Below, one piece after another: positions 1-14,153 of a stretch of DNA of 14,153 nt. The position numbers and the translations under genes are program-made. The stretch is taken from IMG/VR virus record IMGVR_UViG_3300029930_000719; one strand, 5' to 3'. Position 1 is the first letter of the stretch; every line of letters starts with the position of its first letter. Origin of the DNA: a virus. The notes beneath the pieces are model-generated. The model made no database searches. It saw only the letters and a list, made by a program, of their open reading frames with translations, and was not told where the DNA came from.

Positions 1-95
1 GTCGCAGATCGCGTAGAATGGGAGCAATTGGCAAATCCTTCTTTATGGATGCTGCCGGTCTTGTTGTTGGTGCTGCTGCTGCAAGGGTACTAACA
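1..95. repeat. Terminal direct repeat, left copy, identical to 14059-14153. This is the circular closure or terminal redundancy of a 14,058-bp genome.
   Basis: The 95 nt compared base by base are identical at both ends. The repeat cuts through an ORF that is continuous across the junction. Confidence 0.95.
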
Positions 96-398
96 AGTTC
101 ACCAAAAATTCTCCCTAATCTTGATGCAAAAATTAAGAGTGCGGGTGTTATTGCAGTTGGTGCATTTTTCCCCAAATTTATGAAAGGTGCATTTGGAAAA
201 TCAATCGGAGATGGAATGATTGCTGCCGGTGGTCTTGGACTGCTTCAAGCTACAAACATTCTCGGAGCAATTGACAATGCAATGGATATTCCCGTTAGTG
301 TAATGGCAGGAGATGACCTTTCTGTAATAGCCGGTAACGGTTACGGACAAGACAATCTTTCAGTTCTCGCGGGAATGGATGAAGATTACAACTATTAA
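18..398 (+). CDS. 3' portion of the junction-spanning gene (true ATG at 14025). Arg-rich N-terminus followed by Gly/Ala-rich hydrophobic segments; candidate internal or membrane-associated DNA-binding virion protein.
   Basis: The frame is open from position 3, and the same frame at 14025-14153 supplies MARRRKKARSGRRRSRR upstream of Met-18. Hydrophobic stretches are GLVVGAAAARVL, AGVIAVGAFF and MIAAGGLGLL. DDLSVIAG and DNLSVLAG form a tandem peptide repeat, and the C-terminus is acidic. Confidence 0.8.
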   Translation: MGAIGKSFFMDAAGLVVGAAAARVLTSSPKILPNLDAKIKSAGVIAVGAFFPKFMKGAFGKSIGDGMIAAGGLGLLQATNILGAIDNAMDIPVSVMAGDDLSVIAGNGYGQDNLSVLAGMDEDYNY

Positions 399-422
399 TA
401 AACTTTAAAAATTAAATAGAAA

Positions 423-1082
423 ATGGCAAGTCAATTAGGTGCAAGGCTCGTATTTGATAATGCGAAGGCCCTTGTTCAAAATGCCGGGTTTAGTGTAGGC
501 CAGGCGGTTCTTTCTCAAAGCTACATTCGTAGTGAGGTTGCACTTTCTGCATCCACTACATCTTATCACATTCCTGTATTGGTAAACGATACGCAAACAA
601 GTGCATCCGCCTTCCCGACGGAACAAAGGTTGCAACTTCAGGATGCGTTCGTGGTGTCAAGTATAGGTATTTTTGTTGCTTCTCCGGGTGCTCCAACAAG
701 TACTGAATTTAAACTGCTTTCATACAATAACGATGTTATATTTTCGGGTGCTGGTGAAGCTGATGCACTTCTTTCTTTGTACAATGGGTCTTTGTCATGG
801 GTTGTGAACAATAGGCAAATAATTCCTGCATGGGATATTTATAGGCACTATAATGTTCCACAAACCCAAGAGGATACCCAAGCAGGTGGTAACACTGGTA
901 TTGACCAATTTGATAGCGAAAGCGGTTACTATCCTATGGAGCCTAACGCAGTATTGGTTGGTTCTAAAAATAATCAAATTACTATTAATCTTCCGGCAGC
1001 ACTTTCTGCGGTTAGACTTAATTCTCGTTTGGTTGTGGTTTTCAAAGGAATATTGGCCCAGAACGTGACTCCGGTGCGTTAA
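423..1082 (+). CDS. Hypothetical structural protein (219 aa). Candidate jelly-roll-type major capsid protein.
   Basis: Long ORF with an A-rich leader and a beta-strand-rich composition. It shares four colinear motifs with the next ORF. It is followed by a hairpin. The fold assignment is inference only. Confidence 0.85.
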   Translation: MASQLGARLVFDNAKALVQNAGFSVGQAVLSQSYIRSEVALSASTTSYHIPVLVNDTQTSASAFPTEQRLQLQDAFVVSSIGIFVASPGAPTSTEFKLLSYNNDVIFSGAGEADALLSLYNGSLSWVVNNRQIIPAWDIYRHYNVPQTQEDTQAGGNTGIDQFDSESGYYPMEPNAVLVGSKNNQITINLPAALSAVRLNSRLVVVFKGILAQNVTPVR

Positions 1083-1083
1083 T

Positions 1084-1101
1084 CCGGTATATATATATCG
1101 G
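1084..1101 (+). other. (TA)n-containing hairpin directly after the 423..1082 stop, followed by a locally GC-rich stretch.
   Basis: CCGGTATATATATATCGG has a 7-bp stem including one G-T wobble. There is no clear T-run, so a terminator role is uncertain. Confidence 0.3.
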
Positions 1102-1176
1102 AGAATGGCCGATGCTCCCGGCGGTTACGCTGCCAAATCAAGAAGGCCTATTTTTTAAACTTCATAAAAAACCAAT

Positions 1177-12704: not shown

Positions 12705-12726
12705 AATCACCTTTTTTCACCTTTAT
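12705..12726 (+). repeat. 22-nt element AATCACCTTTTTTCACCTTTAT, copy 2.
   Basis: Exact match to 1610-1631. It starts 1 nt after the stop at 12704, and its last two nt are the AT of the ATG at 12725. Confidence 0.9.
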
Positions 12727-13003
12727 GTTCAAAAAATATCCAGTAAAGGCCACAAAAAACGCAACCGAAGGATATATTTTGAACTTAATGAAAGGTAGCT
12801 GCAAAAATGCTACCGGAGTAAAAACGGCGATGAAATTGATAAATAGAGAGGCATTGAGTGAAAAATTTGTGAACAAAATGTACTCTTATTTGAAACGTGC
12901 GAAAGTTTATGTAGGTGAAAAAGATAGATGCGGTTACATATCGTATCAATTATGGGGGGGCAAGGAAATGTTGAAATGGTGTGAAAAAACTTTAAAAAAA
13001 TAA
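12725..13003 (+). CDS. Hypothetical protein (92 aa).
   Basis: ORF. From memory, the pattern GVKTAMKLINREALS..KMYSYLKRA...GYISYQLWGGKEMLKW resembles a widespread small phage-associated domain of unknown function. Confidence 0.65.
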   Translation: MFKKYPVKATKNATEGYILNLMKGSCKNATGVKTAMKLINREALSEKFVNKMYSYLKRAKVYVGEKDRCGYISYQLWGGKEMLKWCEKTLKK

Positions 13004-13005
13004 AC

Positions 13006-13977
13006 ATGACTGCAAAACAAAAAGCAGCAAGGGCAAAATTCAAAGCGGTTGTTGCCGAAGCAAAAAAGTTGAGGAAAAAAAATCCTAAATTAACCCAAGC
13101 ACAAGCGGTTAAACAAGCATTTGCAATTTCTTATTCAAAAAAAGGCACATCAAAAAAAGTTAGTGGAAATAAAGATTTTGCAAAGCAAAAAAAGGTTAAT
13201 GATGCAATAAATAAAAAATTTGCAAATTGGAGATATCCTGTACCGCCTGTTTATACCGGCAATTGGTCTGTTGCAACATGGACTAATTGGATAAAAAAAC
13301 ATGGTCAAAAAATTGGTGCAATAAAAATAGTTGAGAAAGGAGAAAGCAAAAAGACAAAACCAAAGGCAACTTATCAACAAGTTCGTAGCAAAAAAGGTAC
13401 ATTCAAAGGATTGAAAAAAGTGGGTAATAATAATGTAATAACTGCATCAAATTTTACAAGAATTTCAAATGATATTTACGGAAATCCGCGTTATGTGATA
13501 CATTATTTAAACATTAATAGTAATTATGAAAAGGCAGTTAAAATAGCCAATAAAATAGGCGGTAAAAAATTTAATAACAAACAATATGGTGGTGGAATAG
13601 TTTTTCAATCATATAATATTGATGAAACTGCAAGAAAATTAAATGAGGAAGTAAATAAAAGCAAAAAAATAGGTGCAACTTCAAAAGTAAAAGCCAAAAA
13701 AAGGAAGTCAAGTGAAATGCACACTGATACCAAAAGCCACAATGTAAATATTAGGGTGGTTAGTGGTAATATGACTAATTCTGCATTGGATCAGGCAAAT
13801 TATTTATCTAATAAAATTAGAAATGCAGAAGAACAAAGAGATAGGATTGCAAGTGGAATTAAATATAAAAAATATGATAAGTCAGATATTCCAAAGGCAA
13901 GAGGTATGGTAAAAAAATATAATCAATATATAAAGTCTTTAAAATATAGTTTAAAAGAACTAAAAAAACATATTTAA
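13006..13977 (+). CDS. Highly basic Lys-rich protein (323 aa). Candidate nucleic-acid-binding or internal protein.
   Basis: N-terminal MTAKQKAARAKFKAVVAEAKKLRKKNPKLTQAQAVKQAF with many KK runs. There is a central less-basic domain (YGNPRYVIHYLNI...GGGIVFQSY) and a helical basic C-terminus. Confidence 0.75.
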   Translation: MTAKQKAARAKFKAVVAEAKKLRKKNPKLTQAQAVKQAFAISYSKKGTSKKVSGNKDFAKQKKVNDAINKKFANWRYPVPPVYTGNWSVATWTNWIKKHGQKIGAIKIVEKGESKKTKPKATYQQVRSKKGTFKGLKKVGNNNVITASNFTRISNDIYGNPRYVIHYLNINSNYEKAVKIANKIGGKKFNNKQYGGGIVFQSYNIDETARKLNEEVNKSKKIGATSKVKAKKRKSSEMHTDTKSHNVNIRVVSGNMTNSALDQANYLSNKIRNAEEQRDRIASGIKYKKYDKSDIPKARGMVKKYNQYIKSLKYSLKELKKHI

Positions 13978-14024
13978 AAATCTTGGGATAGTTTCCCACA
14001 TAAACAAGTCAAAAAACAAAAAAA

Positions 14025-14153
14025 ATGGCAAGAAGAAGAAAAAAGGCACGTTCCGGCCGTCGCAGATCGCGTAGAATGGGAGCAATTGGCAAATCCTTCT
14101 TTATGGATGCTGCCGGTCTTGTTGTTGGTGCTGCTGCTGCAAGGGTACTAACA
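14025..14153 (+). CDS. 5' portion of the junction-spanning gene; continues as 18..398 after circular closure (full protein 143 aa).
   Basis: The ATG at 14025 gives MARRRKKARSGRRRSRRMGAIGKSFF.... Position 14076 corresponds to window position 18 and is in the same frame. Confidence 0.75.
   Translation, partial: MARRRKKARSGRRRSRRMGAIGKSFFMDAAGLVVGAAAARVLT
14059..14153. repeat. Terminal direct repeat, right copy (identical to 1-95).
   Basis: Base-by-base identity with 1-95. Confidence 0.95.

Follow-up and report, generated by a model that had tools for sequence, protein, structure and literature searches.

The question raised by IMG/VR record IMGVR_UViG_3300029930_000719, a stretch of viral DNA of 14,153 nucleotides (here called the window, meaning the whole stretch that was analysed), is what kind of virus is encoded by so small a genome, which carries a fibre gene, lysis-type genes and many membrane proteins and none of the recognizable core genes of a tailed phage. 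An initial annotation, made from the letters and their open reading frames (ORFs), had proposed that a tailless architecture fits this gene content better and could place the genome in no family. Profile searches, structure prediction and comparison with related genomes lead us to the view that the window is probably the complete circular 14,058-bp genome of a lytic tailless bacterial virus, most likely of Bacteroidota, from a very large unclassified lineage of 10–14 kb circles. On the best reading of our data, these lytic tailless phages form a new lineage of family rank or above and package DNA without an ATPase of their own. They would belong among the tailless jelly-roll phages, and no reference resource searched names the lineage.

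Bases 1–95 of the window are identical to bases 14059–14153, and because a direct terminal repeat of this kind (95 nt) is the usual signature of a circular assembly, we read the window as a closed circle of 14,058 bp and the repeat as the assembly overlap. An identical 219-amino-acid (219-aa) protein is present on six contigs of 10–20 kb; one Logan contig, an independent assembly, measures 14,088 bp, which is the unit length of 14,058 bp plus a 30-nt overlap, so the circle is reproducible. The first gene spans the junction: it starts at an ATG at 14026 (true 5′ end 14026–14153, continuing through 96–398 of the circle; the rest within the window is 18–398), and its product is of 143 aa and not 126 aa, with an Arg-rich arm (MARRRKKARSGRRRSRR) at the N terminus. 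Every ORF having homologues or family matches lies on the + strand, as do all genes and terminator-like hairpins whose coordinates are given below. The GC content is 27–42%, and on the coding strand both GC skew and AT skew are positive over most of the length. The ORF sizes listed in the initial annotation were borne out (805, 382, 323, 319, 236, 232, 219 and 213 aa, all on the + strand), the second being 383 aa when its first codon is counted. No tRNA genes or Rfam families were found in the genome, and megablast of the whole genome gave no match among 50,697 phage records or 72,556 plasmids. Its failure to fit any recognized group has thus persisted on closer inspection, as neither whole-genome DNA comparison nor profiles matched it to a classified phage family or to a plasmid.

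When 20 ORFs were scanned against Pfam, PHROGs and NCBIfam, the last of which yielded nothing useful, there was no match to a terminase, portal, HK97 capsid, tail tube, tape-measure protein or integrase, in agreement with what had been seen by eye; nor did the profiles for double jelly-roll capsid proteins and FtsK/HerA (A32-like) ATPases, which had been recommended as specific searches together with those for terminase and portal, find anything. The fibre that had been reported is an 805-aa protein (3498–5915) with a Peptidase_S74 intramolecular chaperone domain at its C terminus (residues 711–765, E 1.3e-15) and matches to tail-fibre PHROGs. Tail-category PHROG matches are confined to this protein, ending at its S74-bearing C terminus, and include no tail tube, tape measure or baseplate. 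A fibre with an S74 chaperone is typical of tailed phages, and one might suppose that the window represents a miniature tailed phage in which portal, terminase and HK97 capsid have diverged beyond detection. We find this scarcely credible, since besides the fibre only the helicase, a transglutaminase-like membrane protein and a Lys-rich TreK protein exceed 240 aa, the best-conserved protein is confidently modelled as a beta-sandwich and not as HK97, and there are complete relatives that have no P-loop protein at all.

This last observation bears directly on how DNA is packaged. A Walker-A scan found a single genuine site in the genome (motif GMPKQGKS), in a 319-aa protein (9613–10572) that matches AAA_25 (RepA-type helicase; E 4.8e-7, above the gathering score) and the primase/helicase family phrog_239 (E ~5e-7); the only P-loop protein is therefore a RepA/AAA_25-type helicase, in keeping with what had been suspected. 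Two complete relatives, the closed circles L097 and L098, have no convincing Walker-A or P-loop protein, and the missing packaging ATPase is consequently a trait of the lineage and not a failure of detection in a single genome. Packaging ATPase, portal and terminase were found in no lineage member examined. The idea that the helicase doubles as a packaging motor, as do parvovirus Rep and cystovirus P4, was also considered and is rejected lineage-wide, because the relatives with Rep3 or Rep_trans initiators have no P-loop protein.

The defining and best-conserved gene of the lineage encodes the 219-aa protein (423–1082). Neither Pfam nor PHROGs gave a match to it, no PHROG is matched by any of 128 diverse family members, and tblastn with the protein and with a majority-clade homologue against the 50,697 phage records gave no match, even when E<=1 was allowed. 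An AlphaFold2 model built from a 147-sequence alignment (mean predicted local distance difference test score, pLDDT, 86; predicted template-modelling score, pTM, 0.84) comprises an N-terminal helix followed by about nine strands that form a single beta-sandwich. When this model was compared with the PDB by Foldseek, the majority of the 50 top-ranked matches were viral jelly-roll capsid proteins, none of them below E 1e-3. The match of highest probability (0.99) was VP4 of the archaeal virus SPV1 (6oj0_A; template-modelling (TM) scores 0.40/0.47, E 5e-3), and other weak neighbours included circovirus proteins, the double jelly-roll proteins of iridovirus and PBCV, the penton of phage FLiP (8a06), bromo-, tymo- and luteovirus coats, P23-77 VP17 and HCIV-1. 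Matches in BFVD were likewise weak and mostly viral. The adjacent gene (1177–1602) encodes a conserved 141-aa protein that is also modelled as a beta-sandwich (pLDDT 77.5), and the top Foldseek PDB match of this model is again SPV1 VP4 (E 0.1, not significant). No paralogy was detected between the 219-aa and 141-aa families, and neither the 219-, 141-, 236- and 383-aa family profiles nor single-sequence searches with the helicase and fibre found a credible match among PDB sequences. On the strength of these models, both proteins are best described as predicted jelly-roll-like beta-sandwiches, the 219-aa protein being the best candidate for a major capsid protein and the 141-aa protein a candidate second capsid or penton protein. 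The structure comparison suggested in the initial annotation has thus pointed to jelly-roll capsids and not to HK97, and together with the gene content these predicted folds favour the tailless virion that was proposed there.

The 219-aa family is very large. Homologues number 861 among 90%-identity clusters and more than 2,100 with a profile query, and an exhaustive hidden Markov model (HMM) search of 1.84 billion representatives gave 1,011 clusters at 50% identity with E<=1e-3 (619 with E<=1e-10); the best 150 matches are 208–298 aa long, some shorter fragments aside. Two distant capsid homologues, used as seeds for scans of IMG/VR, gave no matches. The contigs that carry the family cluster at 12–13.5 kb, 26 of 80 IMG/VR loci are closed circles (11.4–13.7 kb), and the genomes of the lineage as a whole are circular and of 10–14 kb. 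A 37-kb Joint Genome Institute (JGI) contig (L088) repeats a unit of ~12.7 kb head to tail and, as this unit is present more than once, is a concatemer. The copies in L088 do not agree in the ORF at the fibre position (409 aa in one, more than 518 aa in another, where the end of the locus cuts it), which suggests that fibre variants of co-existing strains were collapsed into one assembly.

Comparison of synteny across the 80 IMG/VR loci revealed a structural block in the order 143, 219, 141 and 236 aa, a variable slot, 130 aa, fibre, 92 and 53 aa; a replication block of 83 aa, helicase and 63 aa; and a third block of 142 and 383 aa. Several relatives carry the replication block in the opposite orientation to the structural block. 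Seven of these genes, encoding the 142-aa LEA_2-like, 383-aa transglutaminase-like, 143-aa basic-arm, 219-, 141-, 236- and 130-aa proteins, form a syntenic module that extends well beyond the close relatives: HMMs of the window families detect all seven in both L097 and L098 (E 1e-6 to 1e-69), and six of the seven in a partial contig (L096), the transglutaminase-like protein not being among them. The module is accompanied by a fibre or a large ORF beside the 130-aa gene and, in most genomes examined, by a lysozyme. The replication module is interchangeable, with the AAA_25 helicase in the clade of the window, a Rep3_N plus Rep3_C initiator in L097 (11,558 bp, with Phage_lysozyme) and a weak Pfam match to Rep_trans in L098 (10,078 bp, with a Transglut_core protein). 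A set of genes that is kept at great divergence while replication genes are swapped around it is the signature of a virion module and is hard to square with a plain plasmid. This is one reason why we regard as very unlikely the suggestion that the window is a satellite or plasmid-like element, replicating as a plasmid and relying on a helper phage or vesicles for its capsid and transfer. Plasmid-type replication proteins and iterons, the lack of a packaging enzyme, the small genome and the occurrence of stand-alone contigs in bins of metagenome-assembled genomes (MAGs) would all be accommodated by such an element. It would have to be reconciled with a seven-gene non-replicative module kept over more than 1,000 protein clusters, with a fibre and a lysis cassette of its own, with the absence of the HK97 capsid and small terminase typical of known satellites, with the lack of any relaxase, type IV secretion system (T4SS), partition, toxin–antitoxin or integrase gene, and with the lack of an integrated copy among 185,579 species genomes.

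How the circle is replicated can be proposed in some detail. The helicase has homologues on Bacteroidota plasmids, and a cluster of iteron-like repeats lies close to its gene. The 270-nt spacer between the genes for a 63-aa basic protein, conserved beside the helicase (10665–10856), and the 142-aa protein contains a candidate replication origin (10915–11070), in which a cluster of GGTCA/TGACC sites flanks a 38-nt palindrome (10999–11036); five of the 16 such sites in the genome fall inside 181 nt of this spacer (binomial P 1.4e-6). Close relatives have 4–7 GGTCA/TGACC sites in the same spacer, and the majority clade has instead 6–8 GTTTAA repeats, most of them as GGTTTAA (spacers compared: L005–L061). 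Because the repeats differ by clade and adjoin the replication protein, the spacer looks like an iteron origin. The repeat is AGGTCA in the subclade of the window versus GGTTTAA in the majority clade, which suggests that the iterons co-evolved with the replication protein, and we suspect that the last ~80 residues of the helicase form a DNA-binding domain. A program-called ORF over the origin (10860–11039) has no homologues and is probably non-coding.

Upstream of the helicase lie several small early-region ORFs (8271–9613), among them a zinc-ribbon protein (9199–9417) and an 83-aa protein (9362–9613), the latter with homologues in 63 of the 80 IMG/VR relatives and located just upstream of the helicase in those whose gene order was listed. 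Two terminator-like hairpins with T-runs divide the circle: that at 10883–10904 closes an early/replication unit of ~8.1–10.9 kb, and that at 8056–8077 closes a long late transcription unit running from 11128 through the junction to 8030. The strongest GC-rich hairpin of the genome (9304–9329; 11 pairs, eight of them G–C) is situated inside the zinc-ribbon ORF and has no clear T-run. Scans of the genome for the Bacteroidetes promoter consensus (TTTG...TAnnTTTG) gave matches at chance level, and those for sigma-70 promoters were below chance.

The nature of the replication genes also bears on the form of the packaged genome. A tailless jelly-roll shell of the same kind could enclose circular single-stranded DNA (ssDNA), as in FLiP, Obscuriviridae and Microviridae, with packaging coupled to replication; this alternative concerns the genome type only and overlaps with the reading that we prefer. 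It would explain why there is no ATPase, it suits the location of all genes on one strand with strong positive GC and AT skew, and it gains some weight from the rolling-circle Rep_trans-type initiator of the distant relative L098 (a weak Pfam match) and from the fact that the known ATPase-less flavobacterial phages are ssDNA phages (PMC8776804, PMC8812541). We nevertheless consider it unlikely. The RepA-type helicase and iterons of the window and the Rep3 protein of L097 are theta-type systems of double-stranded DNA (dsDNA) plasmids, no HUH nuclease was found, the replication module is on the opposite strand in several relatives, and 14 kb exceeds the icosahedral ssDNA phage genomes compared (FLiP 9.2 kb, Omtje 6.6 kb).

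The helicase is also a guide to the host. Its homologues, at 25–34% identity, are found only on plasmids of Bacteroides, Phocaeicola, Parabacteroides and Prevotella, in Flavobacterium phages and on unannotated gut ‘Bacteriophage sp.’ contigs. In GTDB, sampled at one genome per species (185,579 genomes), the 219-aa gene was found just three times, always in a lake MAG and on a short stand-alone contig; Bacteroidetes is the label of two of these MAGs. The host phylum is likely to be Bacteroidota. No integrated copy was present among these species genomes and no integrase was found; the lifestyle is lytic or episomal rather than integrative. Four of the gut contigs, from human faeces (L001–L004; MT836017, MT836458, MT836227 and MT836591), are 9.6–14.8 kb long and have a helicase of ~32% identity; they were considered as relatives and rejected, as they have nothing but the helicase in common with the window. 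Small Bacteroidales plasmids carry the same helicase (OY726037, 9.2 kb; NZ_OY725959, 15.7 kb), and together with the gut contigs these plasmids may form a further group of small elements that replicate with this module.

The remaining proteins of the conserved module are consistent with a membrane-associated particle, and the initial impression that membrane proteins are numerous proved correct, several being found in the genome. The 143-aa family has a constant plan of a ~20-residue Arg/Lys-rich arm, two to three Gly/Ala-rich hydrophobic helices and an acidic C terminus (the last two features making up the body at 18–398); basic arm, membrane segments and acidic tail are kept throughout the superfamily, and the protein is a candidate DNA-binding membrane protein. 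The 236-aa acidic protein (1644–2354) has a conserved N-terminal domain and a helical C terminus, together with a coiled coil and a poly-Glu patch that is likewise conserved, and is a candidate for a role in scaffolding or assembly. Its poly-Glu/Asp tract is encoded by a 15-nt tandem repeat (2.7 copies; 2033–2072), and the acidic patch is kept family-wide with variable length. The variable slot that follows (2361–3082) encodes two small, poorly conserved proteins of 153 and 86 aa, both with a hydrophobic anchor at the N terminus. The gene immediately upstream of the fibre encodes the 130-aa protein (3095–3487), which is conserved across the superfamily in its C-terminal ~90 aa and is a candidate vertex or fibre-adaptor protein. 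In the fibre itself the N-terminal ~200 aa are conserved in the family and the distal part is variable, the pattern expected if an anchor in the virion carries a receptor-binding part that can be exchanged. Downstream of the fibre are genes for two small conserved acidic proteins of 92 and 53 aa (5918–6375).

At the other end of the late unit, the 142-aa protein (11128–11556) has an N-terminal hydrophobic segment and a weak match to LEA_2. It is followed by the 383-aa transglutaminase-like (papain-fold) protein (11553–12704). Members of this family share an N-terminal domain of ~185 aa in which Asp97-Cys98-Lys99, His138 and Asp154 are invariant, corresponding to a papain/transglutaminase-type triad, and a conserved hydrophobic C-terminal anchor ending in KKK; PF04473 was matched in 40 of 56 members. 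The protein may be a maturation protease or a virion-borne cell-wall peptidase. Beyond it (12725–13977) are genes for a 92-aa protein and a 323-aa Lys-rich, very basic protein (pI 10.4; 13006–13977) with a Phage_TreK domain (E 2.4e-22). These are patchily conserved, and the TreK domain is retained in only about 10 of the 80 relatives; it is otherwise known from terminal-repeat genes of large Staphylococcus phages.

The lysis genes lie downstream of the fibre region. Two small hydrophobic proteins of 67 and 53 aa (6347–6692) are holin-like by position, with ORFs of similar size before the lysozyme in relatives. A 232-aa protein with a C-terminal hydrophobic tail (7332–8030) is a candidate endolysin. 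The earlier mention of lysis-type enzymes stands in so far as relatives carry PF00959 Phage_lysozyme in this slot, preceded by small ORFs of 54–61 aa; in the window the match is weak (phrog_315, E 2.9e-5). The lysis-cassette slot also contains a 213-aa protein (6694–7335) that has a hydrophobic anchor at its N terminus, weak Pfam matches to DSPc and Tc-R-P, and a signature of the protein tyrosine/dual-specificity phosphatase (PTP/DSP) type (HCLWGADRTG; HCxxxxxR signature WIHCLWGADRTG), of which no homologue was found in the 80 IMG/VR relatives. For so small a genome, a phosphatase anchored in the membrane is an unusual accessory. In the 7.6-kb contig of P0501 (ENA ERZ1426834), a distant homologue of the 219-aa protein (298 aa) is encoded near a PF01832 glucosaminidase, the type of lysis enzyme found in Obscuriviridae, and this contig hints that lysis enzymes are exchanged within the lineage, as replication genes are.

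Our current working hypothesis is that the helicase and host replication enzymes would copy the circle like a plasmid, starting at the iteron-plus-palindrome origin (10915–11070), and that a single long late transcript (from 11128 through the junction to 8030) would express the virion and lysis genes. The 219-aa jelly-roll protein would build the shell and the 141-aa and/or 130-aa proteins the fibre-bearing vertices, the acidic 236-aa protein serving as scaffold. Because membrane proteins are many, we infer that the virion has a lipid component; the Arg-rich arms of the 143-aa membrane protein would condense the genome against the membrane, perhaps helped by the Lys-rich 323-aa protein, and the shell would close around the membrane-associated genome without an ATP-driven motor, as in SPV1 and FLiP. 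The variable distal part of the fibre would determine host range, and the small holin-like proteins and a muramidase would free the progeny. A more specific version, which we put forward only tentatively, is that the lineage is a bacterial counterpart of the portoglobovirus-like state, that is, an icosahedral, membrane-associated single jelly-roll shell with circular dsDNA and no packaging ATPase. This state has so far been known only from one archaeal family and has been proposed as ancestor of Helvetiavirae (PMC8812541).

The same abundance of membrane proteins, with the absence of a packaging ATPase, could be taken to indicate a pleomorphic enveloped, vesicle-type virus resembling plasmaviruses or pleolipoviruses, in which fibre and membrane proteins stud a vesicle and the beta-sandwich proteins act as spike or matrix. 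Pleolipoviruses likewise swap the replication module around a conserved virion module, and one BFVD match of the 219-aa model is a protein of Haloarcula hispanica pleomorphic virus 4. The small ORFs followed by a lysozyme in relatives imply lytic release and not budding, the top structural neighbours are mostly capsid jelly-rolls of icosahedral viruses, and the acidic coiled-coil 236-aa protein resembles a scaffold; a vesicle-type virion therefore seems quite improbable to us.

Several considerations weigh against the tailless icosahedral virus that we favour and should be borne in mind. No virion has been seen, and the internal membrane, the icosahedral shell, the dsDNA and the ATPase-free co-assembly are all features that we infer. 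The structural matches are weak (all PDB E-values >=4e-3, all TM-scores <=0.5), that of the 141-aa protein to SPV1 VP4 at E 0.1 is not significant, and the term ‘jelly-roll capsid protein’ accordingly refers to the level of fold and not to homology. The host call draws on where homologues occur and on how bins are labelled, and neither CRISPR spacers nor an isolate entered into it; the assignment of an endolysin in this genome is weak (phrog_315, E 3e-5). The replication genes and iterons are plasmid-like, and these elements are sometimes binned into MAGs. We found no paper describing the lineage, and literature outside the scope of the search could hold one; the ‘Charybdis elements’ of a preprint, considered in this context, are a different thing, a 4.6-kb archaeal element.

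Tailless phages are under-sampled, with a handful of families, most of them found by chance isolation, and it is against this background that a single 14-kb genome leads to more than 1,000 candidate capsid-protein clusters (50% identity) to which INPHARED, PHROGs, Pfam and PDB sequences offer no match. Provided that the two predicted jelly-roll proteins do form the shell, FLiP and SPV1 would be joined by a third ATPase-less jelly-roll lineage, apparently also the first bacterial candidate with a plasmid-type theta replicon, which bears on the published scenario that capsids came first and packaging ATPases were acquired later. Should the portoglobovirus-like reading be true, a new family- to kingdom-level taxon, abundant in aquatic metagenomes, would be merited. 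The lineage also constitutes a natural experiment in module exchange, in which a single virion module has been paired with three or more unrelated replication systems. On the practical side, marker tools tuned to terminase, portal and HK97 will miss or mislabel these viruses, and the profile of the 219-aa family could be used as a metagenome marker for counting them.

Comparison with known systems places these features in context. Core-family HMMs and hhalign comparisons against FLiP, P23-77, PM2 and Omtje gave nothing (best HMM E 0.03 among a few hundred ORFs; hhalign probabilities <=1.1%). The Helvetiavirae (Matsushitaviridae, with P23-77, Simuloviridae and Sphaerolipoviridae) invite comparison with the window: they have circular dsDNA of 16–19 kb and two adjacent single jelly-roll capsid genes, and the Simuloviridae have lipid-containing tailless virions (PMC12642351). 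They differ in that an FtsK/HerA-type ATPase adjoins the capsid genes (P23-77 ORF13), of which there is none in the window; the two adjacent beta-sandwich proteins of the window, with VP17 a weak neighbour, show no profile similarity to VP16/VP17 and no mutual paralogy. Corticoviridae and other Vinavirales (PM2, Autolykiviridae, Jorvik-like) are tailless and recall the window in their ~10-kb circle, plasmid-like replication module, vertex spike and small structural proteins, but their capsid protein is a double jelly-roll of at least 269 aa and they encode a packaging ATPase (P9). Neither was found in the window: hhalign against PM2 P2 gave a probability of <=1%, and no Bamfordvirae profile or FtsK/HerA (A32-like) ATPase was matched.

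The Obscuriviridae (Cellulophaga phages Omtje and phi12:2) are likewise tailless and infect Flavobacteriia. They are unassigned to a realm, lack a packaging ATPase and have a number of small structural proteins whose fold is unknown, but differ in their ~6.5-kb ssDNA genome and in a core that includes a rolling-circle initiator and a glucosaminidase (PMC8776804, PMC12451628); that core comprises a replication initiation factor, an endo-beta-N-acetylglucosaminidase and eight shared structural proteins (PMC8776804). Omtje ORFs have no HMM or hhalign similarity to the window families, and the presence in Omtje (MT732445, L095) of structural proteins of 219 aa (301–960) and 141 aa (4901–5326) is a coincidence of length. 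No Pfam or PHROG match to a Microviridae F/VP1-type capsid or initiator was found in the window, and its 14 kb compare with 4–7 kb of ssDNA in that family. Iteron plasmids of Bacteroidota have ‘AAA family ATPase’ or ‘primase/helicase’ genes of 25–34% identity to the helicase, and the window for its part has an iteron-like origin; only the replication module is held in common, the virion and lysis module of the window being absent from the plasmids, and no relaxase, T4SS, partition or toxin–antitoxin gene was detected in the window with Pfam, PHROGs or NCBIfam.

The Portogloboviridae, represented by SPV1, have in common with the window a circular genome and the absence of a packaging ATPase, and VP4 (6oj0_A) is the leading, if weak, structural match of both models (TM 0.40–0.47; E 5e-3 and 0.1). 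The SPV1 genome is circular dsDNA of ~20 kb, the capsid proteins are single jelly-rolls and the virion contains lipid. SPV1 differs in being archaeal and hyperthermophilic, and the window lineage has no sequence similarity to it; to our knowledge, SPV1 has no S74-chaperone fibre, no bacterial lysis cassette and no helicase- or Rep3-type replication genes. FLiP (Finnlakeviridae) is tailless, infects a freshwater Flavobacterium and combines a small circular genome with a structural lytic enzyme and no packaging ATPase. It has an internal membrane (PMC7654751), but its capsid protein is a 311-aa double jelly-roll and its 9.2-kb ssDNA genome is replicated by the rolling-circle mode; HMM and hhalign comparison of FLiP ORFs with the window families revealed no similarity, and no HUH/Rep protein was found in the window. 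Both SPV1 and FLiP are devoid of a genome-packaging ATPase (PMC8812541). The closest functional analogues of the lineage described here are these two ATPase-less jelly-roll lineages, FLiP and SPV1, which Krupovic and colleagues regard as early stages of capsid evolution (PMC8812541).

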